A DNA stretch of 64,000 nt from a virus. Position 1 is the first letter of the stretch. Each line of letters starts with the position of its first letter. The notes below the pieces were generated by a model that had not been told where the DNA came from, did no database searches, and saw nothing but the letters and a program-made list of their open reading frames with translations. Shown here one piece after another: positions 45,826 to 64,000 of this stretch. Location: positions 3,970-67,969 of IMG/VR virus record IMGVR_UViG_3300008113_000149; one strand, 5' to 3'. The position numbers and the translations under genes were made by a program.

Positions 45826-46303
45826 TCATAATTTCCTCTTTTAACCTTCCGTAAACTTTAGCATATTGTTTTGAGGAGTGCATGAAATTTTCATGCTGGT
45901 TACAAGAGTGAATCACTGTGCTATGGTCCTTTCTAAATATTGTTCCAATCTTTTCGTAGGTGTAGTGTAATTCGCGCCGCATATAATACATTACATGTCT
46001 TCGGCAATCAACGAACTCCCCTTTTCTGGTGTTGCCGCAAAAATCCATGATGGTGATACTATGAATAATGCACGCACAATCGATGATCTGTTTGTCCAGA
46101 GTCTTTAAAACATTGTAGGTGATGACCATGCTAGGTCGCTTCGCTTTACCAGTGATGGGGTTTAACGTACGGTTTTTGTACTTTAGATACAAATGATTTT
46201 TATTAATCGCGCGAACGATGCGGTTTGTTTCTAAGGAGTCTAGGTCAAGTTGTTTGACCACTAATTCCAATATTTCAGCGGTAAATTCTGCTACAGTAGG
46301 CAT
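45788..46303 (-). CDS. protein with a DnaA C-terminal-like HTH domain
   Basis: R..VMYYMR.....TYEKIGTIFRKDHSTVIHS. Confidence 0.8.
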   Translation of the reverse strand: MPTVAEFTAEILELVVKQLDLDSLETNRIVRAINKNHLYLKYKNRTLNPITGKAKRPSMVITYNVLKTLDKQIIDCACIIHSITIMDFCGNTRKGEFVDCRRHVMYYMRRELHYTYEKIGTIFRKDHSTVIHSCNQHENFMHSSKQYAKVYGRLKEEIMTTVVPHESLSIL

Positions 46304-48154: not shown

Positions 48155-48503
48155 CTTTCATTTTGATTAAGTAATCGAAGAAATACATGCCATTCTCTAT
48201 CAGATAGTAACTGTGGACATTGTGAGATCGCCTCCAGTTACGGCTATAAATTAAAAATTTGCAATCATTCATTGTCAGAATGAAGTGGTTGGGATGCAGA
48301 GAGCATTCCATATTCCTAAGGGCTTTTGCCGCGCTCTGCATACGGATGTAAGTATTGGGGTTGACATTGATATATTCAACTTCCATTTTCTTTCTAGAAA
48401 TGAATCTCAGAGAACTCAGCAAAGAGGTTGTTGGTGTCATTGTAGTCGATTTCGTTAGTCCATATTTCAGTTTGTTCCTTGTATCTACCGCTAGGTAAAT
48501 CAA
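48135..48503 (-). CDS. hypothetical protein (true start probably near 48390)
   Basis: Fills the gap between helicase and polymerase; the 5' part overlaps the helicase gene. Confidence 0.5.
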   Translation of the reverse strand: MIYLAVDTRNKLKYGLTKSTTMTPTTSLLSSLRFISRKKMEVEYINVNPNTYIRMQSAAKALRNMECSLHPNHFILTMNDCKFLIYSRNWRRSHNVHSYYLIENGMYFFDYLIKMKDEDSSL

Positions 48504-50103: not shown

Positions 50104-50429
50104 ACAATTAGCGGTTTGTTTTGCCCTTTGGGTAAGTTCATAGCCCATCGCCCCGCGGCGGACTTCCAGACTTTCATTTTGTTTTTGCCGACCATCCAGC
50201 CTTTGCTGTCATAGAAGTAAACAAATTCCTGGGCATGTTTCATGGATTCATTTACGTTCAATTCAATGAATAAGTTAAACACTTCTTCTATTGTAGGGGC
50301 GATAAATTTCTTGGTGGCGGGGGTGTCAGATTTCATTGCATCTCTAATGAGTTGCTTCTTTTCTTCGGGTAAATTGACCTCAAGTAAGATGTTCGCAATG
50401 ACGTGCAGTAGTTTGTCTGAGTTGTTCAT
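50100..50429 (-). CDS. replication-initiator-like C-terminal domain protein
   Basis: FIAPTIEEV...F..FYDSKGWMVGKNKMK.WKSAA..W, typical of phage replisome-organiser C-termini. Confidence 0.65.
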   Translation of the reverse strand: MNNSDKLLHVIANILLEVNLPEEKKQLIRDAMKSDTPATKKFIAPTIEEVFNLFIELNVNESMKHAQEFVYFYDSKGWMVGKNKMKVWKSAAGRWAMNLPKGQNKPLIV

Positions 50430-50767
50430 TGTATGATTTTTAGTTTTAGTTTTTGTTTCAATAGTGGTTTGTAGTTTAGTCCGCTTTCCACAATATCGAT
50501 TTGTGAAGAAGACAGCAAATCTAAGTGCGGAGATTCAATAATGCCAACAAATTCTAAATTATCCACAATGTCGCACCAATTTAATTTCTTAACATAGTCG
50601 ATAAGCCCCAGCAAATCCACGCGCGGTATTTTGCTTGTGTAGGGCATTTCTTTATTGTATAAGAATCTGTTACGATGTTCATACACGTATTTGATCGGTA
50701 TGTCAAAGACAAACCCGTTTTGTGTATAAATTCTAAAATTTACGGGGATTTCATATGAATTGGTCAT
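50426..50767 (-). CDS. hypothetical protein
   Basis: 113-aa ORF coupled to neighbours. Confidence 0.65.
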   Translation of the reverse strand: MTNSYEIPVNFRIYTQNGFVFDIPIKYVYEHRNRFLYNKEMPYTSKIPRVDLLGLIDYVKKLNWCDIVDNLEFVGIIESPHLDLLSSSQIDIVESGLNYKPLLKQKLKLKIIQ

Positions 50768-51494
50768 AGATGTTGTTGTTTACAATTTTGATGATAGTGG
50801 AATGGTGAAATTGCTTGCCTGTCTTTGAGGTAATACCATCTTTATTCAAGTGTCTGGCGATTTCGCTGTATTTCATTTGCTTCTTACAGGTAAATATTTT
50901 ACGGACAATTTTCATTTCGCTTTCATTTACCACCAGATTGCCATCGTTCTTATCAAAACCAAATGGTACGGGTCCGCAATAGACTTTGTTTTCTTTCTTG
51001 AGATACTTCATCACCGAAGAAATGAGTTCGCCTCTTTGGTTTGATTCAAACTCAGCAAACGCCGCGATCATTTGAAGCATTAATTTACCATGGCTGGTAG
51101 AAGTATCAAATTGAAAGTCCAGCGTATAAAACGACACCCCGAAGTTTTCTAAGAATGCTACCCATTTCAAAGTGTCTTTGGTGTTTCTACCAAAACGAGA
51201 CAGGCTGTAAACAACTACGACGTCTACTTCTTTTCTTTTGACCATGTCAATCATCTTCATGAAGTCTGGGCGGTTCTCAAACTTTCTGCCTGAGACCCCC
51301 GGATCTGAAAATGTTGCTACAATTTCGTAGTTATTTAGTTTGCAGAACGCTTCGATGCGGTCCTCTTGGTTGTCTAACGACGAACCATCTTCTACTTGAT
51401 TTTCATGAGAGACTCTCGTATAATAAACGGCTCTCTTCTTCGGTGAATGGTCCTTCTGTGGTAGTCTTTCGTTCGGGTACGGATTCGATTTCAT
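50751..51494 (-). CDS. serine recombinase (resolvase catalytic domain + short recombinase-type DNA-binding domain)
   Basis: YTRVS (catalytic Ser), D.GVSGR...RP, VYSLSRFGRN, AAFAEFE, G.VPFGF, IARHLN..GI. Confidence 0.9.
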   Translation of the reverse strand: MKSNPYPNERLPQKDHSPKKRAVYYTRVSHENQVEDGSSLDNQEDRIEAFCKLNNYEIVATFSDPGVSGRKFENRPDFMKMIDMVKRKEVDVVVVYSLSRFGRNTKDTLKWVAFLENFGVSFYTLDFQFDTSTSHGKLMLQMIAAFAEFESNQRGELISSVMKYLKKENKVYCGPVPFGFDKNDGNLVVNESEMKIVRKIFTCKKQMKYSEIARHLNKDGITSKTGKQFHHSTIIKIVNNNIYDQFI

Positions 51495-51819
51495 TTTTCT
51501 TGACGTTTGATAAAATTTCCTTCATGATAAGTTGCAAGTACAATTTCTTTCCAATTTCATTGGCTTTGCAGAAAATGTCTATCGCTTTGTAGTTTTTAGG
51601 TGACAGTTGTACGTAGGCATAACTTGTCTTTTGATATTCTACCGCGCTACGTAAAAGCGACCGCCTGTTCTTGCTAATGTAGGCGTGCAGTAAGTCATCG
51701 GCCAGAGAGTAAAAATTACCATAGCCATTGGCATCTGCGATTTCTTTGAGTTTTTCCAATTGTTTTTCGTTCAATGTCATTTTTAAACTATGCTCATTGA
51801 TTTTATATTTTCTGTCCAT
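51403..51819 (-). CDS. possible tandem ribbon-helix-helix DNA-binding protein
   Basis: Two strand-helix-helix-like units (LKMTLNEKQLEKLKEIA; YVQLSPKNYKAIDIFC); directly upstream of the recombinase. Confidence 0.45.
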   Translation of the reverse strand: MDRKYKINEHSLKMTLNEKQLEKLKEIADANGYGNFYSLADDLLHAYISKNRRSLLRSAVEYQKTSYAYVQLSPKNYKAIDIFCKANEIGKKLYLQLIMKEILSNVKKNEIESVPERKTTTEGPFTEEESRLLYESLS

Positions 51820-51967
51820 ATCTGATTAAGTAGTGGATTAAGTATACGAGAATGACTATTACAACATTGAAAAGAAACGATTTTTTCGCTTGGTGCAAAG
51901 CATTGTCTCGTTTATTCCCAATCGTATATCGAGGTCGGGGTAACATAAATTAATCTAAAATTAAGTC

Positions 51968-52001
51968 GGAGGGTTGTGTTACCATGGTATACTAACCCTC
52001 C
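51968..52001. terminator. hairpin downstream of the Dps-like gene
   Basis: GGAGGGTT...AACCCTCC with an inner TACC/GGTA pairing; weak U tract. Confidence 0.45.
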
Positions 52002-52027
52002 TTGGTAAATTGTGAAACGATTTCCCA

Positions 52028-52378
52028 TTATACGAGGGTTAGTTTGTACAGGGTTTTGTTGATTAGGCTTAGCATTTCATCCATGATATTTTGAAGATCA
52101 GAAGAATACTTGTTCCGCTCACGAGCAATAATTTGCTTGAGTTTATTCAAGTGTTCAACTGGGTTCTCGGGCTTCAGAGGATCAATGGCCATGACTTCGA
52201 TAGGTATTCTCCTGTTTTGACCGAAGTAATTCTCTGTGAATTCATCTGTCAGACCAAGGATACCTTCGTAGTATTCCCCTAAGGTTTGATGTTGTGAGTA
52301 AGAGGTTGTACTCCAATGTGCTAAATGCATAGCATCTCTTGAATGCAATAGTGTGCTGATAAATTTCTGAGTAATCAT
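52028..52378 (-). CDS. ferritin/Dps-like four-helix protein (DUF5856-like)
   Basis: MHLAHWSTTSYSQHQTLGEYYE....TDEFTE...LQNIMDEM...INKTLYKLTL; ATG 52378 lies 3 nt after TAAATTTG. Confidence 0.75.
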   Translation of the reverse strand: MITQKFISTLLHSRDAMHLAHWSTTSYSQHQTLGEYYEGILGLTDEFTENYFGQNRRIPIEVMAIDPLKPENPVEHLNKLKQIIARERNKYSSDLQNIMDEMLSLINKTLYKLTLV

Positions 52379-52386
52379 ATACAAAT

Positions 52387-52524
52387 TTATTCTTTTAAAA
52401 TGGTATCAATAAGTTTTGCTAAACATATTTTGGCTTCGGTTTCACTTGCGAATCGACGAATAATAACTCCGTCATAATAAATCCGATACTCTGGAACAGA
52501 GTTAACGAATGCAAGTCTGATCAT
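52387..52524 (-). CDS. 45-aa hypothetical protein (not in the ORF track)
   Basis: MIRLAFVNSVPEYRIYYDGVIIRRFASETEAK... Confidence 0.55.
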   Translation of the reverse strand: MIRLAFVNSVPEYRIYYDGVIIRRFASETEAKICLAKLIDTILKE

Positions 52525-52538
52525 AGGTATTATTTTAG

Positions 52539-52706
52539 TCATTTTGTATTTTTTGAAGGGTAAAGTGCCAAGGCTAAAACAAAAAGAAAAGATAACGCCA
52601 TGCCCCCGGCAATAATCTGAGCCACAATGGGATGTTTTACAATCATCCAGCCATAGACCAACCCGCTAAGGATGACGCATATGTACACGAAAATTATTTT
52701 TTTCAT
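52539..52706 (-). CDS. 55-aa two-TM membrane protein (not in the ORF track)
   Basis: MKKIIFVYICVILSGLVYGWMIVKHPIVAQIIAGGMALSFLFVLALAL... Confidence 0.55.
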   Translation of the reverse strand: MKKIIFVYICVILSGLVYGWMIVKHPIVAQIIAGGMALSFLFVLALALYPSKNTK

Positions 52707-52798
52707 CTAAAATTTATTAATGTAACCTTGCTTTTGCATTTGATACAGATGGTAAGATACAATTCTATTCCATTTTTTCCAACGGCAAACTAAATTTT

Positions 52799-53008
52799 TC
52801 ATTCGCTGTCAAGATAAATTGATTTAGCCTTGGCAAAGCCTTGGTTGTAGGCTTGTTGCTTTTCAAAATTTTCGATGTCTTTGGCTTTATTAAAGTATGG
52901 CGTCAAATCCACAGTTTCTTTGAAGGAACCTAATCGTTGACCAAAGCCGTTATCGTAAGTGATTTCTTCCTGTAACCACTCTACTGCCGAATCGTGTTTA
53001 TTGCTCAT
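52799..53008 (-). CDS. small hypothetical protein (AVEW family)
   Basis: SAVEWL...KAKDIE..EKQQAYNQG; resembles 53216..53473. Confidence 0.7.
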   Translation of the reverse strand: MSNKHDSAVEWLQEEITYDNGFGQRLGSFKETVDLTPYFNKAKDIENFEKQQAYNQGFAKAKSIYLDSE

Positions 53009-53219
53009 CGTTCATCTCATTATAATTGTCCATTTCCCATTCCTCTTCCATCCTGTTGTAATCATCCACAGCATCTTGGTTTGTGTCCTCATCACTTGGT
53101 AGTTCAATGGGTGTTTCAGTTTTCAAAATGTCCTCAAATGTCAAAATGTGTTCGTATAAATCACTATCTATACAAACTTGAAGCATTTTCCTTACTTGTT
53201 CTTCTGTGTATAGCTTCAT
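52998..53219 (-). CDS. small acidic hypothetical protein
   Basis: MKLYTEEQV...PIELPSDE. Confidence 0.7.
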   Translation of the reverse strand: MKLYTEEQVRKMLQVCIDSDLYEHILTFEDILKTETPIELPSDEDTNQDAVDDYNRMEEEWEMDNYNEMNDEQ

Positions 53220-53473
53220 TGCTCACCTCCTCCGTAGGTTTCGTTGTAGTATTCTACTGCTCTTAAATAAGTTCCAATTTGCCCTCTGCAATCACCAAAC
53301 ATATGTGATTGCATTATTTGTTCCTTCTCCATTTCTTTGGCTTGGGCTCTTATTTCTAAATTCCTTTTAAGATATTCATCAAATGAGTATTCACCATTGT
53401 TGAACTTTTCAAATGAATTAAACAATTGTTCAAATTGCCACTCCACTGCCGTTTGTTGTTTATTATTTGTCAT
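53216..53473 (-). CDS. small hypothetical protein (AVEW family)
   Basis: QQTAVEW...QAKEMEKEQI...YYNETYGG. Confidence 0.7.
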   Translation of the reverse strand: MTNNKQQTAVEWQFEQLFNSFEKFNNGEYSFDEYLKRNLEIRAQAKEMEKEQIMQSHMFGDCRGQIGTYLRAVEYYNETYGGGEQ

Positions 53474-53727
53474 AGTTGTTTTTTAATTTCTTCTTGCCAA
53501 GCAGTGGGTAAATCTGTACATGAAATAACAATTTCATTACCTCGACAGTCTGAATCTGCTTCCGATTTGTCACCAAATAAAATAACTCTTCCATATGAAT
53601 CTGAAAGCACGTGGTCGTTGGCTTTATCATAAATTACGTAGTCTGTTGTAAATAATCTCTTAATGCATTTTTCATCGTTTCTCTCTTTCCATTTTTTCAT
53701 AAGTGTTTTTTGTTTGTTGTTTTTCAT
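53470..53727 (-). CDS. small hypothetical protein
   Basis: Start moved to MKNNKQKT (53727), which overlaps the upstream stop. Confidence 0.65.
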   Translation of the reverse strand: MKNNKQKTLMKKWKERNDEKCIKRLFTTDYVIYDKANDHVLSDSYGRVILFGDKSEADSDCRGNEIVISCTDLPTAWQEEIKKQL

Positions 53728-53921
53728 AGTTTTTCTATTTCTTGTTTTACTTTTTGCCAAAAATAGATTTCACCATTACTTAAAAGAAATGTTGAATTGC
53801 ATAACAACTCATCGCACATAATTAATGCACATTGAATTCCTTCATTTCTTTGTTGCAATCCAACCACGGTGAATTTATCAACCAGTTCTTTTGCTTTCTC
53901 TTGTGGTGTCATCTTATTCAA
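53724..53921 (-). CDS. small hypothetical protein (MTPxEKAKEL family)
   Basis: MTPQEKAKELVDKF...QCALI..DE...FWQKVKQEIEKL. Confidence 0.7.
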   Translation of the reverse strand: MNKMTPQEKAKELVDKFTVVGLQQRNEGIQCALIMCDELLCNSTFLLSNGEIYFWQKVKQEIEKL

Positions 53922-54054
53922 TGGTTAATTCGATTAATTCTAAAAATTGTTGTAAAGATACTTTGCCTGTTTTCACCCACTCGTAAATCAATTTACGTTT
54001 CTCGTATGGGAATTGCAAAGCGTTGATTTTGTCAACTTTGTCTTTCGGGGTCAT
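53914..54054 (-). CDS. small hypothetical protein
   Basis: Start moved to MTPKDKV (54054); contains LIYEWVKTG. Confidence 0.6.
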   Translation of the reverse strand: MTPKDKVDKINALQFPYEKRKLIYEWVKTGKVSLQQFLELIELTIE

Positions 54055-54608
54055 TGCTTTGGTTTTATTGGGGTTTGAAAAACTAGTTCGTTGGTATTTT
54101 GTTTGGTATGGCGGTAAACACAAATCTGATTGTAATCTTCGCAATAGTGTACATCAAAGTAAATCTGATTGCCGTTTCCATCGGAAACATTTACTGTAGT
54201 CCACCAATCTGACTCCCCAGGAGTAACTCTAAGAATAACAAGATTGCCAGCATATGGAAATACAAGTTCATAGTCTTGAAAATACTTTTTCTTGGGCAGG
54301 GCCTCAGTGTATTGATTGAACTTTGATCTACGCATTCTGAAGAAGCCTTTGTGCTCTGGAAACTCATTATCAAACAACCTAGCAAACAAAGGAGCATAGT
54401 TGTTATTGATTTTAAATACGCCATCGCCTTTCTCGGCTGTCTTCCAACGAATGATTTCAAATATGCCGTTGGCACCATAGTGATCGAATCCCATTGCTTT
54501 TGTCTTTAAAGCAATTTCTTTGAACGCTTCATACAAATGAGGATTTGTTTTGTGGTACTCGATAAACTCCTTGTTATCGATTCCTTCGAATAAATTTAAT
54601 TGTGACAT
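54051..54608 (-). CDS. two-domain hypothetical protein
   Basis: N-terminal YH..NPHLY..F...IFEIIRW...FKINNNY...ARLF domain plus an unrelated C-terminal part. Confidence 0.7.
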   Translation of the reverse strand: MSQLNLFEGIDNKEFIEYHKTNPHLYEAFKEIALKTKAMGFDHYGANGIFEIIRWKTAEKGDGVFKINNNYAPLFARLFDNEFPEHKGFFRMRRSKFNQYTEALPKKKYFQDYELVFPYAGNLVILRVTPGESDWWTTVNVSDGNGNQIYFDVHYCEDYNQICVYRHTKQNTNELVFQTPIKPKQ

Positions 54609-55120
54609 AAGTTGTGTGCTTTGTATAGGTTTCGTTTGTTATATTTTATGATTCTGTTAGAAGTGGTGTCGTAGTGGTATCGAGTTTTACTGAGCATGTT
54701 TTCGTCAAAGATAGTTTCACGGATGGTCTCAGCCAATAATTCGTTTGACTCATCAATCTCTGATTGAGTGTATTCTACTCCGTAGTATTCTGCTTCGGTA
54801 GGTTCGCTGATAATCATCCCAGTATAAAATCCAGGAAGGGCGTGTTTATCAAAGAATTTATTGGCGTGGCACCATACAGCGACCAATTCTTTGGAGGCTA
54901 TCTTTGATACGTGAGAGGCATTGATCATGATTCGGCGGTGACCATAAAGACCACCTTCGTAGCCATGACCTAGCATGATGATACGATCGTGCTCTTCAAT
55001 TAAATCTATGAGTTCATCGTTGGTTACGTAGTGAGTTACTACGTTCCAATTTTTACCTTGGTAGATACGACTTAAAAAGTCAGTTGTGGCATCCTTAGGA
55101 TGGATTACAAGTGTTTTCAT
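54596..55120 (-). CDS. hypothetical protein, possible caspase/gingipain-fold (His-Cys) peptidase
   Basis: RIIMLGHG...VAVWC spacing. Confidence 0.4.
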   Translation of the reverse strand: MKTLVIHPKDATTDFLSRIYQGKNWNVVTHYVTNDELIDLIEEHDRIIMLGHGYEGGLYGHRRIMINASHVSKIASKELVAVWCHANKFFDKHALPGFYTGMIISEPTEAEYYGVEYTQSEIDESNELLAETIRETIFDENMLSKTRYHYDTTSNRIIKYNKRNLYKAHNLCHN

Positions 55121-55121
55121 T

Positions 55122-55352
55122 TTAGTGTGTAGTTGTTAGGATAGAGGTGAGTTCGTAATCAATTGTTGAGATAGGTTGTTCTAGTTGCCATTGGCTTAAG
55201 AGTTCGACGAGTTGTTGGAATTTGCTCTTGTCATACAAGATGTGTTCGGAAACATAGGCAAGGAAGATTCTACGTTCGTGTTCTCTCAAGTCCCGGAATG
55301 AAACATCATCCACAGGCATTTCAATTTTGATCTTTTTGATTTTAGGTGTCAT
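55122..55352 (-). CDS. hypothetical protein
   Basis: 76-aa ORF. Confidence 0.65.
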   Translation of the reverse strand: MTPKIKKIKIEMPVDDVSFRDLREHERRIFLAYVSEHILYDKSKFQQLVELLSQWQLEQPISTIDYELTSILTTTH

Positions 55353-55359
55353 AGTTTTT

Positions 55360-55385
55360 AAAGTAAACCCCCTCCGAAGAGGGGG
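55360..55385 (-). terminator. Rho-independent terminator
   Basis: On the - strand, CCCCCTC-TTCG-GAGGGGG followed by TTTACTTT, just after the DUF932-like stop. Confidence 0.75.
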
Positions 55386-55394
55386 TGTGGTGAA

Positions 55395-56402
55395 TTAAGC
55401 GAGGGTATAAACTTTCTGAGCAGTATTCTGTTCGATCCAAGACATGATGGTTTCGTAGGCAACATTGTTGATGTTGTAGCCAGTACCTGTCATTAGATAA
55501 TCTAACTTGCGGTCTTTGTCAACAGGAGCCGACATATGGTTGGTGTAACGAGTCACGGCATTGAACAATCCCCACAATGTATCACCTTCTAGGTCACGTT
55601 CGATGTTGTAGGCTTGAGCAAAGTCTTGCATCTGATTGATCTTACGGGTGCTGATGTCTTCACGATTGGTCTTCTTGACATCGATCTTGAACATGTTGTT
55701 GAGGACGGCCTGTACTACATTCTCGCTGGGAGCAATTTCAGACATACGTTTGAAGTTGTCAAACAACTGCTTGTCAGCATTGATTGTTTCTTGAAACTGC
55801 TTGATAGCATTTTCGATACGACCTTTGGCTGATTCGGTGTGTCTGAACTTGTCAGTTTCTTTGAATGCTCGGTGGAATGTATTGGAGCATACAACAACTG
55901 TATTGGTAGAACCAAAGCCAATTGAACTGCTACCATCGTGGGAGTTCAAACAGGTGACCCATCTTTTGATATTCGATTTGCCTACATACTCATCGGGAAG
56001 CGATGCTTGTAAGAATACTTTGCGACCTTGGTCTAGCATACCGCCTTTGGTAGTTTCGATGCCAATACCTTCGGTTGCTCTGACAATTGTGTCGGCAAGT
56101 TCCCAGTTTTGGAATGTACGATAGCGGTCTTTGACTGAGCCCAAACATGCTACAGGGGTTTCTTCGCCGGGGTTGTATCTAAAGATACCGAAGTGACCCG
56201 TAGATAAGTTAGATGGGTGAACAAATTCTTCCTTGCGGACTTCCCAATTGAGGTTGGTTCTTTCGAGTAAATTCATTGTTTTCTCGAAGTTTTCGATGGT
56301 TAAGTTTGGAGTGCTCATGTTTGTTGATTCGTTGTTGATAAAGTTGTTAGATGTCATAGTTTTTAGGTTTAGAGTGTGGGTTTTGTGTTGGTTAGAATGC
56401 AA
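55395..56402 (-). CDS. DUF932 (TIGR03299-like) protein; start probably downstream of 56402
   Basis: LNWEV...LGSV..RY..FQN...G.L.QGRKVF...LNSHDGS...VVCSNT...TLWGLFNAVT.Y..H. Confidence 0.8.
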   Translation of the reverse strand: MHSNQHKTHTLNLKTMTSNNFINNESTNMSTPNLTIENFEKTMNLLERTNLNWEVRKEEFVHPSNLSTGHFGIFRYNPGEETPVACLGSVKDRYRTFQNWELADTIVRATEGIGIETTKGGMLDQGRKVFLQASLPDEYVGKSNIKRWVTCLNSHDGSSSIGFGSTNTVVVCSNTFHRAFKETDKFRHTESAKGRIENAIKQFQETINADKQLFDNFKRMSEIAPSENVVQAVLNNMFKIDVKKTNREDISTRKINQMQDFAQAYNIERDLEGDTLWGLFNAVTRYTNHMSAPVDKDRKLDYLMTGTGYNINNVAYETIMSWIEQNTAQKVYTLA

Positions 56403-56437
56403 ATGAAATACTTCTTTTTTAAAATTACAAATAAAGT

Positions 56438-56815
56438 TTAATTATTTTTTAGGATGTAGGCTTTTTGTTTGCTGAGTCCGACGTAGTTTTCCCTTACGAT
56501 TATTTCGGTTGTCTCTTTATTTATAAAGGACGTTGTGGTGTAGGGGTTGTAATACATTTCGGGGTTATGAGATTCCCAATCGTATTGATCTTTATCGATC
56601 TTGATATAAGAATCAGCCAAGATGTAGGCATGCACATTTTTCTGCTGAGATTTCAGAACTCTTTGACGGCCCGCTTCTGAGACCCAAGGTCGTACGTTCA
56701 TCAGCAGAGCACAATGAATGTGCTCTAGAAGACGATAGTTTTGCTTTTTGTAGTCATAGGCCAGGACGCTAAAGCAATTTCGGTGCAGATTGCGATAGAT
56801 TTTGTAAGGTTTCAT
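56438..56815 (-). CDS. conserved phage hypothetical protein
   Basis: YRNLH...FSV...VSEAGRQRVL...KNVHAY...YNPY. Confidence 0.75.
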   Translation of the reverse strand: MKPYKIYRNLHRNCFSVLAYDYKKQNYRLLEHIHCALLMNVRPWVSEAGRQRVLKSQQKNVHAYILADSYIKIDKDQYDWESHNPEMYYNPYTTTSFINKETTEIIVRENYVGLSKQKAYILKNN

Positions 56816-57048
56816 AATTCGATTAAGTAGGGTTCGGGTACATATTGAATGGTATAACCACGCAATGCCTTTTTTAGGGCAAGGACATAGTCATCATGAT
56901 CATAGAACACATCGACATCATGACGTTCTTGGTCAACCATTGGTTTCAATACGGCTTCGATTTGTTCGGCTGAGGCATCAGAGATGATAAGCAAGTCTTC
57001 TTCTTCATAAGAATTGACGCGGATTTGAAATATTTCTATGAGGTTCAT
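56812..57048 (-). CDS. hypothetical protein
   Basis: Coupled 78-aa ORF. Confidence 0.7.
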   Translation of the reverse strand: MNLIEIFQIRVNSYEEEDLLIISDASAEQIEAVLKPMVDQERHDVDVFYDHDDYVLALKKALRGYTIQYVPEPYLIEL

Positions 57049-57254
57049 GGGGTTATTGGTTTAGGAATCATTTTGTAATTTAAGAAATCTACCATACAAT
57101 CGTATGCACTTTTCGTATCGATGTTAAATTGGCTGTCTTCGAATTCTTTGTACAATTCGGGTAGTACATCGTACTGCCAATCGTATGGTTGGTCATCAAA
57201 AGTCTTATCGAAATTTTTCAATAAGCAAGAGAATAAATACATGTCGTAGTCCAT
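57045..57254 (-). CDS. acidic hypothetical protein
   Basis: Coupled 69-aa ORF. Confidence 0.65.
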   Translation of the reverse strand: MDYDMYLFSCLLKNFDKTFDDQPYDWQYDVLPELYKEFEDSQFNIDTKSAYDCMVDFLNYKMIPKPITP

Positions 57255-57257
57255 AGG

Positions 57258-57827
57258 TTATTTTTCTTGAGTTTTATATTTGTTGATTGCTTCGATTAAT
57301 TCTTGTTTTTGGGTCTCAGATAGCATTGCTATGAATTCTTGATCCATTTCATCGATAGATTCCCAATAGCCTTCCTCGGCATATTCTATTACGCTATAGA
57401 AGAATTCAGTATCTTCTTCGCTAAAGCGATAGACATGGTAACTTACGCATTCATCCCGGGAAACAAGGCCATTGATACAATTGAACCACCCACCAAAATC
57501 CATACCACCTTCTTCGTAGGTAGATTCAATTTCGAACTCATAAACCTCAGACAATTTGCGAAAGAATTCAGAGACGGGTGACCATGCTGAATCTCCAGTT
57601 AATACACCATTGGTGTCGCTTAGTCTTTCCCAATCGGTATGAAACCATCGTGAGCCAAATACTTCGTAAGAAATACCTTCTTCCACAGGTCGCCCTAGTA
57701 CTGTAAAGTACGTCTCCCACCAAAGGTGGTCTTGTTCTTTTCTAGCCTCTGCAAGGCGTTTTTCGAATAGGTCGAGCATCTTTTTACTGCCTTCAATTGA
57801 TGCCCAATTATAACAATGATTTGCCAT
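57258..57827 (-). CDS. YubB/DUF1281-like ferredoxin-fold protein
   Basis: MANHCYN...FGSRW...DSAWSP...KLSE.Y...YEEGGMDFGG. Confidence 0.7.
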   Translation of the reverse strand: MANHCYNWASIEGSKKMLDLFEKRLAEARKEQDHLWWETYFTVLGRPVEEGISYEVFGSRWFHTDWERLSDTNGVLTGDSAWSPVSEFFRKLSEVYEFEIESTYEEGGMDFGGWFNCINGLVSRDECVSYHVYRFSEEDTEFFYSVIEYAEEGYWESIDEMDQEFIAMLSETQKQELIEAINKYKTQEK

Positions 57828-57830
57828 GTT

Positions 57831-58376
57831 TTATCGGTTTTTATATTCGTACATTTTTTTGATTCTACTACGTAACTTTGGGTGTTGACACAACTTCTCA
57901 AAAGAATGATGTTCATTGTCATACTCATACAATAAGATTGGCTTCAATGTTTTTACTGACCACATTGTTTCACCTTCGAACAATAATACGTCACCTGCAA
58001 TGCTGACATTTATATAAAAATCATGATCACTTCGTCTATCGTCATACATATTGACTTTCATATGAGTGCCACATGATGATTTATCTTGAGTATAGTACCA
58101 CTCGTCACGTTGAGTGAGACAAAACCCCATCGCATTGAATTCTTCCCATAAGTTGGCAAAGTGCTCATCGAAGATTGGTTCGACTGCTTTGAATACGGCT
58201 TCATTGTGTGCTTTGATTCTTGAAATCTCTTTTTGTTTGCGGTGAACTGAATCCATAATTTCGTCAACCCCCAATAGGGATTTGGTTTTGATGGTTTCAG
58301 ATGTTTCGTTGTGGTGAATAAATTCTGAGATGATCTGATTAATTAAATTTTGTTGAGTTAAAGTCAAAGTTGTCAT
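57831..58376 (-). CDS. hypothetical protein
   Basis: 181-aa ORF. Confidence 0.7.
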   Translation of the reverse strand: MTTLTLTQQNLINQIISEFIHHNETSETIKTKSLLGVDEIMDSVHRKQKEISRIKAHNEAVFKAVEPIFDEHFANLWEEFNAMGFCLTQRDEWYYTQDKSSCGTHMKVNMYDDRRSDHDFYINVSIAGDVLLFEGETMWSVKTLKPILLYEYDNEHHSFEKLCQHPKLRSRIKKMYEYKNR

Positions 58377-58660
58377 AGTGTTGGTTGGGTTTTAACAATG
58401 GTAAATTCGGTTTTGATTGGTGCAAGTTGTACATTGTAATGTAGTTCGTGAAAGTCTTCTTCAAACATGTTACCAATCCCTTTTAGGGACTGCATTTTAT
58501 CATAGGAGGCAATCATTTCAAACGCTTCTTGCCGTTGGGCTTCAGATAAAAATGACGAGAAGTGAGCGAAGTGAGATAAGGCATCTCCGATGTTCTGATA
58601 CCATTTGAAAGCGATTACTTGGGATTCCCAAGAGACTTGTGTTTTAGATAGATTTATCAT
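58373..58660 (-). CDS. hypothetical protein
   Basis: 95-aa coupled ORF. Confidence 0.65.
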   Translation of the reverse strand: MINLSKTQVSWESQVIAFKWYQNIGDALSHFAHFSSFLSEAQRQEAFEMIASYDKMQSLKGIGNMFEEDFHELHYNVQLAPIKTEFTIVKTQPTL

Positions 58661-58830
58661 ATTTCTACGTGAGTTTCGGTGATGTTACATTGTTCCAATT
58701 CTTCGATGCAGATGTCTTCGATCGCCATAGAATCAAAGATTTTACCCGCTTCTTCTTTGCTGTTGGCTTCGACTTCAAAGGTGGTGCAGTAGGTTCGCCA
58801 CATTGTAATTACGTAAGTTTCTTTCGTCAT
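58657..58830 (-). CDS. 57-aa hypothetical protein (not in the ORF track)
   Basis: MTKETYVITMWRTYCTTFEVEANSKEEA...; stop overlaps the next ATG. Confidence 0.65.
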   Translation of the reverse strand: MTKETYVITMWRTYCTTFEVEANSKEEAGKIFDSMAIEDICIEELEQCNITETHVEI

Positions 58831-58844
58831 GTTTTTATATTTTA

Positions 58845-58907
58845 ACTATCTCTAAGTGTATGGTACCTTTTCACTACGTTCAAAGGATACCATACACGAG
58901 AGTTAGT
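58845..58907 (-). promoter_or_regulatory. conserved-apex long hairpin, copy 1
   Basis: On the + strand, GTGTATGGTA-CCTTT-[TCACTACGTTC]-AAAGG-a-TACCATACAC, plus outer pairing. Confidence 0.8.
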
Positions 58908-58922
58908 AAAGGTGAGATGGTT

Positions 58923-59123
58923 TTAGATGATTTTGTGGTCACTATTGAATTCCACGCTGTAATAAAACTCTAGCATGTATCGTAAATCATCTAGAATTTC
59001 AAGAACTTCTGTCAATTCATAAGTGATATCGGTAGTTGTTGGTTCGTCAATTTCTGGCCGATTCATTAATTCATAGATTTTTATCAGTTTATCCTTCATT
59101 TTTCCAGTTTTTAGGTTCGTCAT
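58923..59123 (-). CDS. hypothetical protein (start probably MKDKL, ~59099)
   Basis: Short ORF coupled to the upstream gene. Confidence 0.55.
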   Translation of the reverse strand: MTNLKTGKMKDKLIKIYELMNRPEIDEPTTTDITYELTEVLEILDDLRYMLEFYYSVEFNSDHKII

Positions 59124-59703
59124 CGTTTAAGTCACAAGCCACTTCTATGTTAGAAACATAGTTCCAACCTGTGGCACCGAGGTCGTCTTGTAATTCAAAG
59201 ATGCCATCCAATCGTTTATCTTTGATAAATTTCACAAGATTTTCGATGTCTTTGGCGATAAATCTGAGGCGTTGGGCTTCAGATACATCTTTTGAAAAGA
59301 TATTATCGTAAATCTTTTGAACTAAATCCATGTCTTTGGCATGAGCAAAAACATTGACTACATTATTGCTGAAGTTATGGTCATAAGTCATGCTTTCCAT
59401 ACCAACAATTCTACGAATAAATTCATTGCAGACGTCTGAATTCTTGAATTGAAACTCTTGTCTAAAGCAAGGCAAGAACGCGGTATTGTAATCGGGCAAA
59501 TCGACGTCTAATGTATCGTGAGGATATTTGTCAACATCCGAAGGAACTGTGATTGTAACAGGCAATTTCATTAGATTTTTAAGAGTGACAACGTCATAGA
59601 GTAGATGGCCATCGGATGGTACATCAACTAGGGCATCTTCGTACAATTTCAAGGCTTTGCGGATAATTTTTGTTTCGGTTTCGGGTAAATAGATTTTTCT
59701 CAT
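59089..59703 (-). CDS. hypothetical protein
   Basis: 204-aa ORF. Confidence 0.7.
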   Translation of the reverse strand: MRKIYLPETETKIIRKALKLYEDALVDVPSDGHLLYDVVTLKNLMKLPVTITVPSDVDKYPHDTLDVDLPDYNTAFLPCFRQEFQFKNSDVCNEFIRRIVGMESMTYDHNFSNNVVNVFAHAKDMDLVQKIYDNIFSKDVSEAQRLRFIAKDIENLVKFIKDKRLDGIFELQDDLGATGWNYVSNIEVACDLNDDEPKNWKNEG

Positions 59704-59707
59704 ATTT

Positions 59708-59992
59708 TTAGTAGTTAGGGGTTAAAATTATAGATTCGCCATCTTGGGGTTCGGCAAACCAACCAAATTCTTCGACGTATTCTTGAAATTCTTTTAGAAT
59801 TCCAAACTCGTACTTGTGTTCTTCCCAAATTTCCGGGAATAAATTCACGACAGGTAATCTTGAATCGGGAAAGGTTTCGTAGATGTAGATGGCACCTTTG
59901 GTACCATCCACAACTTCGCTAATTTTACAATCTAGGCTTGGGTAGTCTCCTATTAGGAGATTCACCATTTGGTTTTGAGTCATCTTTTTCAT
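59708..59992 (-). CDS. hypothetical protein
   Basis: Contains YEFGI...GWFAEPQD. Confidence 0.7.
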   Translation of the reverse strand: MKKMTQNQMVNLLIGDYPSLDCKISEVVDGTKGAIYIYETFPDSRLPVVNLFPEIWEEHKYEFGILKEFQEYVEEFGWFAEPQDGESIILTPNY

Positions 59993-60001
59993 GGGGTAAA
60001 T

Positions 60002-60760
60002 TTATTTGAATTTCACAACAAATCCCGAGTCGTCTTTTCTTGCTTTACCTTTGGCTTTTAGCCCAAGGATAGCGGGGCCTTGAATATCAAGCATTAGGTC
60101 GTCTCTGAGGTCGCCGTCATAGACTTTTACACCTTGCCATGTAGTTGGTAGGTCATTGTCAAAGACAACTGCTACGACGCCGTCATTTTGAAGGTGGGTA
60201 ATGACTTCGTCATGGTTGTCTTCGGCTCGTGACAAAGTCACTACGTATTTGTGGCCAGAGTGAAAAACTTTTGTACCCGCTTTGCTAGGAATCTTTGTGT
60301 AATCGTAGAAAACTACGTTTTGGGGTATCAGACTACCATAACTAGCAATTAATTGCTCAACAAGTTTAGCATCGGAGGTGCCATTTAATCGGATAGCAAG
60401 AGGCAAACCTTGAAGTTCAAGGTTACGACCTTTTTGAATAATCTCTGATTTAACTTGATCAAGAAAGGTAAACCTATCTTGTAGATAGTAGTGGGTTCGG
60501 TTGAGTCTTGCTGATTGGACGTTTGGCATTTTGCCACGTCCTGCGGTATTGAGGCAAGATGAGGCACATCCTTTGGATGCCATAGGGCAAAGATTTACAC
60601 CTAAAGCATTGCTTTTCTCGGGTGCCAGGTACAAAATCATCGTATCACGAAGATTTTTTGCAGTTTTTGAGTTAGAGTTGCCATCGGACAAGAGATTTTT
60701 GGGGATGTTGTAAGTGACTTTCATAGATTTATTTTGTTTTTTCGAGGTTAAAATTTCCAA
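60002..60760 (-). CDS. GP88-like protein (Cys cluster, radical-SAM-like); start probably MKVTY ~60724
   Basis: NSKTAK...LYLAP...NLCPMASKGCASSCLNTAGRG...IRLNGTSD...FYDYTK...DGD..D...GLKAKG.A. Confidence 0.75.
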   Translation of the reverse strand: MEILTSKKQNKSMKVTYNIPKNLLSDGNSNSKTAKNLRDTMILYLAPEKSNALGVNLCPMASKGCASSCLNTAGRGKMPNVQSARLNRTHYYLQDRFTFLDQVKSEIIQKGRNLELQGLPLAIRLNGTSDAKLVEQLIASYGSLIPQNVVFYDYTKIPSKAGTKVFHSGHKYVVTLSRAEDNHDEVITHLQNDGVVAVVFDNDLPTTWQGVKVYDGDLRDDLMLDIQGPAILGLKAKGKARKDDSGFVVKFK

Positions 60761-61040
60761 CTTTTTTGCCGTTAAACTCCAGTATTGTAATGGTATTTAC
60801 CATTCGATATTCACGTTTGTCAAGGTCAAAGACCACACGATAACCCATATCTTTGGGCTTAAATTTCATCCCAACCCCTTTTAGGGTTTGGATATCGCCA
60901 TTTTTATCTTTGAATTTCTTGACTCCCGCTAAACCTCTTAGGTATCTTTGGGTGCCATCTTGCTTTACGAAACGGCAAGAGAAGAATTTTTTTGAATCAA
61001 TATGATTCAGAACGTCGGTTTTTGTCAGTTGTTTGCTCAT
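60729..61040 (-). CDS. SH3/Sm-like (WYL_2/DUF2693-like) protein
   Basis: FFSCRFVKQDGTQR...GVKK...VVFDLDKREYRMVN. Confidence 0.55.
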   Translation of the reverse strand: MSKQLTKTDVLNHIDSKKFFSCRFVKQDGTQRYLRGLAGVKKFKDKNGDIQTLKGVGMKFKPKDMGYRVVFDLDKREYRMVNTITILEFNGKKVGNFNLEKTK

Positions 61041-61041
61041 G

Positions 61042-61578
61042 TTAGATGTTTTCTAGGAAAAATTGTTTGGTTTCTGATGGTAAATCAGAACAAGAAATGT
61101 GTTCAGCCAATCCGCTTGATTTATGGTCCCCATAAAATCCGAAGCAAGCATCAATTTCTTCGCCATCTTTGGTGATTCTGAAGCCATAGCAATTACCTGT
61201 TAGGTAATGGTCAAGCATTTCCACTTCGTTTCGCAAGATTATTAGGGTTTTACCCTCATGACATTCGTTGGTTACTATAAAACCAATCTGCCCGCTGTCC
61301 CAAGGGTCATTGAATGGGTTGGTGCTAATGGTAATACCACTATGATCGTACATAAAGACGGGAAGGATGAACTTGTACTTTGGGTAAAGGAAGTCAAAGA
61401 CTTCATCCCACGATAAAAAACTATCAAAATCGAGGTCAATTTCATTGGGCAAATCGTATTTACGATGTTTTAGAACCATTTGGCCGACATTATCGAAGGC
61501 AGTGATTGGTGATTCAGCCATATCATCAATGATGATATCAAGTTGGTAATTTCCGTGGGTTAAACTTTTGTCTGTCAT
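61042..61578 (-). CDS. conserved phage hypothetical protein
   Basis: LPVFMYDHSGITIS..PF.DPWDSGQIGFI...YL.G.CYGF...DACFGFYG. Confidence 0.75.
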   Translation of the reverse strand: MTDKSLTHGNYQLDIIIDDMAESPITAFDNVGQMVLKHRKYDLPNEIDLDFDSFLSWDEVFDFLYPKYKFILPVFMYDHSGITISTNPFNDPWDSGQIGFIVTNECHEGKTLIILRNEVEMLDHYLTGNCYGFRITKDGEEIDACFGFYGDHKSSGLAEHISCSDLPSETKQFFLENI

Positions 61579-61583
61579 AGATT

Positions 61584-61898
61584 TTATTTGTCGCTGTATT
61601 CGATGAGTGGTTGAATTTTAGGGATGTCCAAGGTACCTTTGGTACGATTGATTTCGATGTCGTTTAGCATAGTGATAACTTCGTTAGCATAAGTTATGTA
61701 GAAGTTGGGGTGGAACATACTGAACTTGCCATTGGCTTCATCCTGTGCATTTTTTTCTATGATCGCTGGGATTTGCTCTCTGAGTTCGTTCATGTCGGCT
61801 TCGATTCTTTGAATCAGATAGAAAGCATAGAAAGGGTGCATTTTTTGAATTGCTTGACAAATGATGTCGGTTTGGGTTTTTTTCTTGGTTTGTGCCAT
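61584..61898 (-). CDS. hypothetical protein
   Basis: 104-aa ORF downstream of hairpin copy 2. Confidence 0.7.
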   Translation of the reverse strand: MAQTKKKTQTDIICQAIQKMHPFYAFYLIQRIEADMNELREQIPAIIEKNAQDEANGKFSMFHPNFYITYANEVITMLNDIEINRTKGTLDIPKIQPLIEYSDK

Positions 61899-61927
61899 AT
61901 TTTTGGGGTTAGTTTTTGGGGTTTATA

Positions 61928-61987
61928 ACTCTCTCTAATTAGTGTACTCTTTCACTACGTTCAAGAGATACACTAATAAGAGTGAGT
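61928..61987 (-). promoter_or_regulatory. conserved-apex long hairpin, copy 2
   Basis: ATTAGTGTA-CTCTT-[TCACTACGTTC]-AAGAG-a-TACACTAAT, plus outer ACTC/GAGT. Confidence 0.8.
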
Positions 61988-62017
61988 AATAGGGAGGTTG
62001 GTTTTTGGGGTGTCAGA

Positions 62018-62263
62018 CTACGAAATTTGTTGTGAATGAACGAGCATCTTTGATACATAATAGTCAGAACTAATCTCAGGGTAAGCACCCGATTCTAATT
62101 CTCTCTTAATAAGAGAGATTTTGTGTTGTTCGGCTAGTTCTTCGGTAGCAAACGCCAGGTGTATTTCATGACGATAGTCATCAAACGGCAATACTTGGCA
62201 AACGAGGTAAACATAGTTTAATTGCATGATTTTTTCTTGATTAATAAGGGGATTCAACAACAT
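62018..62263 (-). CDS. hypothetical protein (start probably MQLNY)
   Basis: Contains VYLV...AFATEELAE. Confidence 0.6.
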   Translation of the reverse strand: MLLNPLINQEKIMQLNYVYLVCQVLPFDDYRHEIHLAFATEELAEQHKISLIKRELESGAYPEISSDYYVSKMLVHSQQIS

Positions 62264-62549
62264 CGATTAACTGACCATTCCATTGGGTACCATTAAGGTA
62301 CCACAAGCCTCTACTTTGTCTGATAGATACCCTTGGTATGGCATTGAGACGTTCTTTGGTGGTATTGCTGAACCATCCAGCATTTGTAATGCTAAGTGTA
62401 CGATCGGGATCGTTGTACAGGTAAGCAATTTCATTGCCAAACAACTTGAGAATGGTGACGTTAGGTAGTATTACTACCTCGGTGTTGTCTTGTTTGAATG
62501 GTTTTGCATTTAAAAATGCATTGATGGATTTTTCTGTGATTTTTTTCAT
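62241..62549 (-). CDS. conserved phage hypothetical protein
   Basis: NTEV...LKLFGNEIA...ITNAGWFSNTTKERLNAI...Q....WYL. Confidence 0.75.
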   Translation of the reverse strand: MKKITEKSINAFLNAKPFKQDNTEVVILPNVTILKLFGNEIAYLYNDPDRTLSITNAGWFSNTTKERLNAIPRVSIRQSRGLWYLNGTQWNGQLIDVVESPY

Positions 62550-62585
62550 GATTTTCTTGATTATGTAAGGGTTTGGGGCCTCAGA

Positions 62586-62690
62586 TTACTTAAAGTAATC
62601 ACTTTTAGGGATTTCAAGCATCCAATAAATGCCAAAGGCAATAAGGGATAGTAACAAAACGGCAACTGAGAATTCTAAGAGAATTTGCAT
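62586..62690 (-). CDS. 34-aa single-TM peptide (not in the ORF track)
   Basis: MQILLEFSVAVLLLSLIAFGIYWMLEIPKSDYFK. Confidence 0.45.
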   Translation of the reverse strand: MQILLEFSVAVLLLSLIAFGIYWMLEIPKSDYFK

Positions 62691-62726
62691 GGGTTTTTTC
62701 TTTGATTAATTTGGTGAAAATGGAGG

Positions 62727-63587
62727 TTATTTAACCTCCATAAGTGCTTTTTTACGTTTGCCACAATCAACATCAGAAGTATGGCCAAAGGCCAACTTAT
62801 GGTCAACTTTGTTGGTTTGTGAGAAGATTTGATCCCAAAGGGATTTTGTAGGTGTAGCCTTTGGCTTGATGTCCTTAGAAACAACCACTTTAGTGTTTGT
62901 TTTCTTGTCTCGAACAATCACTTTCTCATCGACAACCTTTGGTTTGGCAACAGCCTTTGGCTGAACAACCTTCGGTTGAGTAGAAGCCTTGATTTCAGCA
63001 ACTTCTTTAGAAGTTTGGGTAACTAACTCTGTTAGTTTGGCAACTTGGGTGGCAAGAAGGCAAACCGACTCAGTTAACTTCGTTAATTTGTCATCGGAAA
63101 CCTTTGGTTTAGAAACCGTAGGTTTAGAAGCCTTTGGCTTTGAAGGAGCAACCTTTGGTTGGGATTGAGAAACCTTTGGTTTGGAAGCCTTTGGCTTACG
63201 TGCTGAAGCCTTTGGCTTTGGGGCCTCAGAAACTCCTTGACAAGAAGCCAACAAATCTACGATTTGCTCTTTAAAAGTCTTAGTCTCTCTACTAGAGAGA
63301 GGAGAAGAATCCACCAAGAACAAAATGTTCTTAGCATAAAGTTCAATGAACTTTAAGTACAAAGGCTGACCATAGAAATGCTTCCAACCTTTGGTTGTAA
63401 ATGCATCCACCATAGATACAAAGTATCTCTGTCTGTCATTCAAATGGCTAATAAGCCATTGTTTCGCTTTAGCCTCAGATTTGAAGCCTTTAAGGGTTTC
63501 CATAAATTGAGTTTCACTCAATGGAGTCGCTACGTGGTTGAACTTTTCTTTCATCTCGGAGTAAGTTGGTTTGGTTTGTGTTGTCAT
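62727..63587 (-). CDS. early protein with Lys/Pro (PKAS/PKVS) repeats
   Basis: Start moved to MTTQTKP (63587) because the upstream extension is hairpin copy 3; central PKASARKPKASKPKVSQSQPKVAPSKPKASKP tract. Confidence 0.7.
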   Translation of the reverse strand: MTTQTKPTYSEMKEKFNHVATPLSETQFMETLKGFKSEAKAKQWLISHLNDRQRYFVSMVDAFTTKGWKHFYGQPLYLKFIELYAKNILFLVDSSPLSSRETKTFKEQIVDLLASCQGVSEAPKPKASARKPKASKPKVSQSQPKVAPSKPKASKPTVSKPKVSDDKLTKLTESVCLLATQVAKLTELVTQTSKEVAEIKASTQPKVVQPKAVAKPKVVDEKVIVRDKKTNTKVVVSKDIKPKATPTKSLWDQIFSQTNKVDHKLAFGHTSDVDCGKRKKALMEVK

Positions 63588-63589
63588 AA

Positions 63590-63656
63590 TTAGTCTATTT
63601 GTTTTTATGTACGTCTCTTCACTATGTTCAGAGACTACTAAAAACAAATTGACTAA
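63590..63656 (-). promoter_or_regulatory. conserved-apex long hairpin, copy 3
   Basis: TTAGTC-t-ATTTGTTTTTA-t-GTA-c-GTCTCT-[TCACTATGTTC]-AGAGAC-TAC-TAAAAACAAAT-t-GACTAA. Confidence 0.8.
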
Positions 63657-64000
63657 ATGGTTTTGAGGCCGTTTCCTTTCGTTCTTTTACGCGTTTCCAT
63701 ATGAACCCTAAGGTCACGTCGAAATCGCGCAGGAGAATCGCTAAGAATCGGTTTTGGACCGAAGTTTGTAACTATGTTACTGACCACGAAAACTTTGTGT
63801 TGATTAAAATAAGATTTTAATCGTTTCGACTTTTTGAAAATTGAGGTCGAAATTGAGTGGTTTGAGAGTGTTTGATTTCATCAAGTGAACGAACATCAAT
63901 TCGCTGAAACCCAATGGTAGCCTACATCTTCGATGTGTTTCCTATTGGACAAATGACCCATCCGACACAAACATTTGTTTGTTACAGCCAAAACCTCCTG

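Follow-up and report, generated by a model that had tools for sequence, protein, structure and literature searches.

Selected hairpins with a structured tip in the first gene block of an uncultured crAss-related freshwater phage

Why would a phage keep long hairpins of differing sequence, all ending in nearly the same tip, ahead of several genes in a single block, and do such hairpins act as RNA or as DNA? The question is raised by a stretch of 64,000 nucleotides, called the window below, which comprises bases 3970-67969 of the 67,969-bp IMG/VR virus record IMGVR_UViG_3300008113_000149, from an uncultured phage. Three inverted repeats in this window (HP3, HP2 and HP1, in the order in which they are met on the minus strand) each lie just upstream of an open reading frame (ORF). 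An earlier note, made from the sequence alone, had read them as a selected cis-element acting either as RNA or as extruded DNA. We compared the hairpins between strains and related phages, searched for selection on their pairing, and weighed the roles that they may have.

Three hairpins with a common tip

The three inverted repeats were present where the earlier note had placed them (Table 1). All have AT-rich, imperfect stems of 25-31 bp and end, on the coding (minus) strand, in the apex GAACRTAGTGA. This word occurs three times in the window, always on the minus strand, against a chance expectation of 0.09, and none of 100 shuffles reached three copies; the whole record likewise contains three. 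A one-mismatch match to the apex at 55036-46 is not accompanied by a comparable hairpin (z -1.4). When the record was ranked by a hairpin finder according to paired bases and energy, HP1, HP2 and HP3 took the top three places. Folded with RNA parameters, the coding strand gave -27.5 (HP1), -27.1 (HP2) and -28.1 kcal/mol (HP3), corresponding to z-scores of -5.4, -5.8 and -7.7, which none of 200 shuffles equalled. With DNA parameters the two strands folded about equally well, at -14.4 to -17.3 kcal/mol (z -5.3 to -7.3).

The folds bore out the finer description given in the earlier note. The single bulged U five pairs under the tip is indeed common to HP1 and HP2, while HP3 bulges on the opposite arm; A.A and U.U mismatches are present as well. 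The tip itself prolongs the helix through a closing U-A pair, a G.A, an A.G and two Watson-Crick pairs up to a triloop, and this tip with its tandem G.A pairs forms on the coding strand only. The distances from stem base to ATG, 14 nt (58830), 29 nt (61898) and 2 nt (63587), were also as described. A likeness of the tip to a K-loop was not upheld. K-turns and K-loops carry their tandem G.A beside a bulge or loop of 3 nt in the 3' strand; here the tandem G.A is flanked directly by Watson-Crick pairs, there is no 3-nt bulge, and one strain lacks the first G.

No T-run follows any of the three stems. Words resembling the -7 promoter box of the presumed host (see below) were noticed in the 5' arms and dropped as promoter boxes, being merely paired parts of the stems. 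The leaders at 58831-58844 and 61899-61927 and the upstream flanks, those of the relatives' hairpins included, are C/A-rich and nearly devoid of G and T. An AAACCA-like word stands 0-10 nt upstream of several hairpins of the family and may just mirror this composition.

Table 1. Positions of the hairpins and of the ORFs and terminator-like sites around them, in window coordinates
Feature	Position	Strand	Remarks
HP3 hairpin	63590..63656	minus	First of the block; extended pairing 63585-63659 takes in the ATG; apex GAACATAGTGA at 63619-63629
HP2 hairpin	61928..61987	minus	Extended pairing 61924-61991; apex GAACGTAGTGA at 61952-61962; bulged U 5 bp below apex
HP1 hairpin	58845..58907	minus	Apex GAACGTAGTGA at 58871-58881; bulged U 5 bp below apex
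First gene of block	62727..63587	minus	286-aa basic protein; QPKV-type repeats; conserved N-terminal helical domain; ATG 2 nt from HP3 base
104-aa ORF	61584..61898	minus	After HP2, behind a 29-nt C/A-rich leader
57-aa ORF	58657..58830	minus	After HP1, behind a 14-nt A-rich leader
Terminator-like site	55367..55386	minus	G+C-rich stem and T-run; top minus-strand terminator-like site; closes the hairpin block
Short G+C hairpin	62720..62741		Just past the first gene; terminator-like on the plus strand; on the minus strand only 3 T follow

The hairpins in strains and relatives

Eight related records and ten further metagenome loci were collected by searches with the portal protein and the first gene of the block. 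The GP88-like gene was also used as bait and brought up 76 loci, among which L004 was the only true relative. In the closest strains (G001 and L135-L137, 85-97% protein identity) all three hairpins are nearly unchanged. Between the window and L135, 193 of 198 hairpin positions are identical (97%), against 1468 of 1686 in the 300-nt flanks (87%), and the strain differences inside the hairpins fall at unpaired positions: the first triloop base, a bulged base, an internal-loop base and a lost apex G. The ortholog of HP3 has the apex GAACGTAGTGA in G001 and L135-L137. HP2 of L135-L137 ends in AACGAAGTGA, from which the first apex G is gone. A C>G change at 58877 gives HP1 the apex GAACCTAGTGA in contigs from three of four DNA runs, among the variants listed. 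Strains differ in the first triloop base (G, A or C), and the loop as a whole varies between GTA, ATA, CTA and GAA, so that the strict GNA triloop proposed in the earlier note was not confirmed.

The next relatives (G002, G003 and L139-L144), whose first gene is 33-40% and portal protein 72-74% identical to that of the window phage, carry three or four hairpins (four in G002) that are built alike and share block and orientation. Their tips are different, being GAGTTCTTACGA, GATTTTATGA or GAGTTTATGA, with plain tetra- to heptaloops at two positions. Set against the condition under which the earlier note would have been refuted, the outcome is split: the homologous loci keep the pairing, while the 11-nt apex is kept in the close strains only. 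The lower stem of one of these hairpins, HPa, has sequence in common with HP1 and HP2, so that the hairpin family is of single origin. In G004-G007 (portal identity 54-56%), which have the same genome plan, no such hairpin was found by the finder at relaxed thresholds, by the covariance model described below or by a scan for the apical module.

Among the eight related records the hairpin class is confined to one gene block and one orientation, whereas a REP-like repeat of the host would be dispersed in many copies without regard to gene starts. The distance from the preceding stop codon to the start of a hairpin is 10-30 nt, and 2-59 nt separate its end from the next start codon, with one orientation throughout. 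The first gene is the same in the G000 type, the G002 type and L139, and in each of them its AUG lies 0-6 nt past the end of the first hairpin or is overlapped by that hairpin. Beside HP2, gene turnover was seen at the strain level: in the contig of one run, 28 other bases stand in place of an 81-aa ORF just upstream of the hairpin (62010-62258). Our literature searches brought up no description of such hairpins in crAss-related or Bacteroidota phages.

Selection on pairing

Compensatory change was counted in five aligned hairpins from G002 and G003; when all copies were aligned with MAFFT, the 3' arms were misplaced, and those alignments were not used. RNAalifold found 21 pairs in the five hairpins, 15 of which were changed on both sides. 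Paired cells amounted to 94.3%, compared with 79.5% in shuffles, and none of 500 shuffles matched the observed pairing, the count of doubly changed pairs or the covariation score. In a control where each arm was set against a slid partner, pairing dropped to 30-66%.

A covariance model built from these five copies alone was then run on 45000-64000. The best three loci were HP2 (25.9 bits, E 1.4e-4), HP1 (17.9 bits, E 0.021) and HP3 (15.1 bits, E 0.13), and at each of them the coding strand outscored the other strand. These copies were recovered with filters off, the default filters having missed them. Rfam covariance models gave three matches at E up to 5 on 55000-64000, all far below the gathering score and none overlapping a hairpin.

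The kept pairing, together with the higher conservation of the hairpins than of their flanks, shows that the hairpins are selected, lineage-specific cis-elements with a structured tip and without a match in Rfam, in agreement with the first part of the earlier proposal. It is the pairing that is selected, and not the sequence.

Genome setting

The two ends of the record are bridged by a 100%-identical metagenome contig with 9 extra bases, and a close relative is collinear across them. The right end of the window is therefore not a demonstrated physical end and, since an identical contig joins its ends, the record is best described as a linearised circular or permuted map short of 9 bases. Genes of the phage include those for a muzzle protein of the crAss type (PF25731, E 3.7e-40), a portal protein, a large terminase, a DNA polymerase, a primase-helicase and a protein of 4111 aa. 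Among 50,697 GenBank phage records no match was obtained by DNA (megablast of 56000-64000) or by portal protein (tblastn). The stretch was found in 20 of 22 listed sequencing runs, from freshwater metagenomes of 12 studies.

All ORFs from 63587 down to 45788 are encoded on the minus strand. The Bacteroidota -7 box, TAnnTTTG, stands 4-9 nt before the ATG in 11 of 45 plus-strand (structural) genes and in 1 of 41 minus-strand genes. Plus-strand gene starts with the box lie within 213-40039 (for example at 1062, 3332, 8129, 14544, 16755 and 29128). The corresponding counts are 10 of 41 genes in G002 and 9 of 40 in G003 for the plus-type strand, and 0 of 44 and 1 of 42 for the other strand. The block between 63.6 and 55.4 kb contains no TAnnTTTG box at all, and a scan for sigma-70-type promoters showed no enrichment (46 found, 38.8 expected). 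A terminator scan revealed no terminator-like site just upstream of HP2 or HP1. The first genes thus combine long C/A-rich leaders and hairpins with the lack of a host box, and the late genes have the host -7 box a few bases ahead of their ATG. From the boxes beside plus-strand ATGs we infer that the host is probably a member of the Bacteroidota, that late mRNAs are near-leaderless and that the hairpin block is expressed in another mode. The block is called early here by its position, its small ORFs and analogy with other phages.

Further features were noted elsewhere in the record. Upstream of HP3, a short non-coding palindrome with 7-nt arms (63962-63985) is conserved in G001 and G002, and its G003 counterpart differs in both arms and is still symmetrical; it could be an operator or a small hairpin. 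On the circular map, HP3 is preceded by a non-coding stretch of ~1.15 kb that contains long G and C runs (record bases 129-208). Left of the window, another hairpin of 24 pairs (record bases 808-866), conserved in G001, lies at the end of a five-gene minus-strand block. A serine recombinase with Resolvase and Recombinase domains (50751-51494, minus strand) is conserved in seven of seven related records, the genome being apparently of lytic type. Within the structural/late strand, a 408-aa protein (35422-36648, plus strand) has PAS and HATPase_c domains and resembles a sensor histidine kinase.

Proposed processing of an early transcript

Among the roles considered, we rank action as RNA first and give it about even chances. 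One long leftward early transcript, from ~63.66 kb to the terminator at 55.37 kb, would carry the hairpins as cis-acting RNA structures that divide it into three gene blocks. Each hairpin folds into an almost unbroken helix of two and a half to three turns, interrupted at fixed places by small imperfections. Such a helix a double-strand-specific endoribonuclease, the host ribonuclease III (RNase III), would cut in the manner of T7 early mRNA. Once cut, the blocks would be apart, with stem ends that protect them, and at HP3 the cut would free the start codon and an A-rich leader otherwise sequestered by the 5' arm. The conserved tip would serve as a second recognition feature, possibly for a phage protein. 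In this specific form, in which RNase III-type cleavage processes and stabilises the transcript and unmasks its first start codon, the proposal is a tentative one.

Bacterial RNase III substrates typically extend over about two helical turns, and where bulges or mismatches are present, cutting is restricted to a single strand and a protective hairpin stays at the 3' end (PMC1540722). Our hairpins reach or exceed this helix length, and their fixed imperfections, conserved between paralogs and between strains, may act in the same way. The placement before the first ORF and between co-directional ORFs appears to fit a polycistronic RNA. A single transcript is also consistent with the lack of a terminator-like site between the blocks, the strong one at their end and the lack of a -7 box inside. 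Since the first hairpin abuts or overlaps the AUG in three lineages, a full-length RNA would mask that start, and the position of this hairpin thus seems to couple structure to the start of translation. With RNA parameters the coding strand folds slightly better in 12 of the 15 distinct hairpins of the family. Finally, the hairpins are accessory, being absent from four related genomes, which fits a regulatory add-on better than a core promoter.

The early mRNA of T7 contains RNase III hairpins (R0.3 to R1.3) of the same general kind. They are long and imperfect, with about two or more turns and internal bulges; they stand ahead of the first gene and also separate early genes within a single polycistronic region; and they are paralogous within the genome, their structure being held while the sequence drifts. 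The hairpins of the window differ from those of T7 in their conserved structured tip and in the near-lack of G.U pairs. The host also differs, being probably a member of the Bacteroidota that makes no use of Shine-Dalgarno sequences.

Several observations weigh against processing as RNA. In ~400 pairs of the 15 distinct hairpins there are only four G.U pairs on the coding strand and two on the other strand, about 1% on either, whereas chance hairpins inside ORFs have 2-5 G.U per about 25 pairs. Between strains whose flanks differ by 13%, not one paired base has changed; if G.U-forming transitions were neutral in RNA, about six would be expected by our estimate, and none was seen. This near-absence of G.U pairs argues for a constraint at the level of DNA, and Watson-Crick symmetry that is strict on both strands is, as far as sequence can tell, what would be expected of a DNA palindrome. 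What most calls for an explanation in these elements is that G.U pairs are excluded. Moreover, RNase III does not need a conserved loop, and RNase III-type sites of T7 are also found in late regions, whereas the hairpins are confined here to the first 5-7.5 kb. The listed sequencing runs with this stretch include no RNA dataset, and cleavage by RNase III is a prediction.

Possible promoters of extruded DNA

The constraint on both strands brings up the possibility that the hairpins are DNA promoters, that is, palindromes extruded from supercoiled DNA which would follow, in a crAss-like lineage, the logic of phage N4. A non-host RNA polymerase delivered with the DNA would start in or just after the tip, and the mRNA would keep the 3' arm only, as an unstructured A-rich leader. 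Near-perfect Watson-Crick complementarity on both strands suits such a promoter, and if transcription began within the hairpin, the end of the first stem at the AUG would be accounted for. The layout also recalls N4, with three copies in 4.8 kb here and four in G002, all in one orientation. N4 has three early hairpin promoters in its first ~8 kb (P1-P3, read by its virion RNA polymerase), which are extruded by supercoiling (PMC13492108). In both cases recognition would be of shape rather than of duplex sequence, and a stable triloop mini-hairpin is possible at the tip. The split between late genes with the host -7 box and a hairpin block without it resembles that in the crAss-like phage phi14:2, whose early genes are served by a virion polymerase active on denatured DNA and, as far as that account goes, have yielded no early promoter motif (bioRxiv 10.1101/2020.03.07.982082).

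We nevertheless consider promoters of this kind unlikely. The stems of 25-31 bp are far longer than those of N4, where the P2 oligonucleotide has a 5-bp stem and a 3-nt loop (PMC13492108). In addition, N4 uses the template strand, whereas the purine-led triloop is here on the coding strand. A short template-strand hairpin with the key G at the loop centre was not found; the coding strand has AC-RNA-GT, with the loops listed above, and the N4-type loop suggested in the earlier note was abandoned. The fixed bulges and mismatches disfavour cruciform extrusion. In the four hairpin-less relatives, which share the genome plan, the first genes are equally without -7 boxes, and the hairpins are therefore no stand-in for a missing promoter type.

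The promoter reading also calls for a polymerase. N4 has a 3500-aa polymerase of the T7 type, and none was detectable here. Searches centred on the virion-type protein of 4111 aa (16767-29102, plus strand). Neither this protein nor its homologs contain a DxDxD motif, and no sequence match to the PDB was obtained, even with a six-sequence profile. Pfam, searched with four overlapping quarters of the protein, and PHROGs returned a weak LPD23 match and an unnamed PHROG, nothing polymerase-like, and the look-alikes in the Atlas are polyvalent LPD proteins and not polymerases. The protein may include a very divergent polymerase domain. That the hairpins are early promoters, extruded as DNA and read by a non-canonical RNA polymerase hidden in this protein and injected with it, seems to us distinctly unlikely. 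An HExxH motif lies near residue 2830, and homologs of 3131-4160 aa are encoded in all related records.

Possible binding sites for a phage protein

The tips might alternatively be bound, as RNA, by a phage protein. The most plausible candidate is the basic product of the first gene, which would act on the transcription or translation machinery through an antitermination site of the nut/boxB kind or a translational operator. The tip is conserved within a genome and different between lineages, as sites of a phage-specific protein would be, and in the HPa orthologs of G002, G003, L141 and L142 the 12-nt loop is identical while the mid-stem is altered with compensation. The first-gene protein always stands directly behind the first hairpin, and its homologs (in G002 and G003, with none in G004-G007) are restricted to genomes that carry the hairpins. 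This co-occurrence, however, amounts to one evolutionary event. The arrangement around the hairpins has parallels in the lambda nut (boxB) site and N-leader RNase III hairpin, where the early transcript has an RNA hairpin ahead of its first gene, that gene codes for a basic protein, a terminator-like site comes next (here the hairpin after the first gene), and the loop is framed by G...A and closed by U-A. The C/A-rich, G-poor tracts that flank the hairpins likewise resemble the rut-boxB-rut arrangement at lambda tR1.

The lambda boxB, however, has a 5-bp stem and a pentaloop, and here no boxA equivalent and no arginine-rich motif were seen. Stems of 25-31 bp far exceed what a protein site needs. 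HPc and HPd of G002/G003 have plain variable loops without the GA...GA frame, and the first G of the tip is lost in one strain. The N-domain of the first-gene protein, modelled by AlphaFold2 as a helical bundle at a predicted local distance difference test (pLDDT) score of 68.6, resembles no known RNA-binding fold, and Foldseek against the PDB gave no match at E up to 0.001. A role as protein-bound RNA site is thus decidedly doubtful, and the first-gene protein as hairpin partner is a lead only.

Less likely readings as DNA palindromes or selfish repeats

Strict Watson-Crick symmetry would also suit DNA palindromes with no part in transcription, such as recombination boundaries at which early gene modules are shuffled (PeSL-like), pause signals for DNA entry or replication signals. 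Their pairing would be kept mainly by template switching from arm to arm, and templated correction explains double transversions in pairs more easily. The hairpins are, in addition, not bound to orthologous genes, since HPb of G002 directly precedes the GP88-like gene, which in the window is the fourth gene after HP2, and the segment swapped in one strain (62010-62258) adjoins HP2. Other strain-level insertions and deletions, however, are found at ordinary gene boundaries and not at hairpins. The constant orientation and the conservation of the imperfections speak for a function tied to one strand, and the hairpins outdo their flanks in conservation between strains. We regard such palindromes as highly improbable.

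The T4-type PeSL cassettes offer a likeness in that repeated intergenic stem-loops stand amid small early genes whose set varies. In a PeSL, a short stem-loop is coupled to an early promoter of the host type (PMC4122927). The hairpins of the window have no promoter box of that type next to them, their stems are several times longer, and no PeSL-like composite of promoter plus terminator was found. Membership in this class was ruled out by the lack of TAnnTTTG in the block, the unenriched sigma-70 scan and the lack of T-runs after the stems.

That the hairpins are selfish or neutral palindromic repeats without a phage function, as their restriction to a lineage and the likeness of copies within a genome would allow, is barely credible in view of their confinement to one gene block and one orientation in every carrier genome, of the constancy of the first copy at the first start codon across three lineages, and of the 193 of 198 hairpin positions, against 1468 of 1686 flank positions, identical between strains.

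Implications for the phage lineage

The hairpins form a statistically solid family of structured cis-elements without an Rfam entry, at what is probably the opening of the infection programme in an uncultured lineage of freshwater phages. The same genomes show two expression regimes, boxed late genes and box-less, hairpin-bearing first genes. For the question of how early transcription is started in crAss-type phages, the hairpins offer concrete, testable sites. Should they be promoters read through the 4111-aa protein, they would be the first recognisable class of early promoter in crAss-related phages and a second, independent invention of the N4 strategy. If they are RNase III sites, as in the processing that we favour, the T7 paradigm would extend to phages of Bacteroidota, and the exclusion of G.U pairs would then need an explanation of its own.

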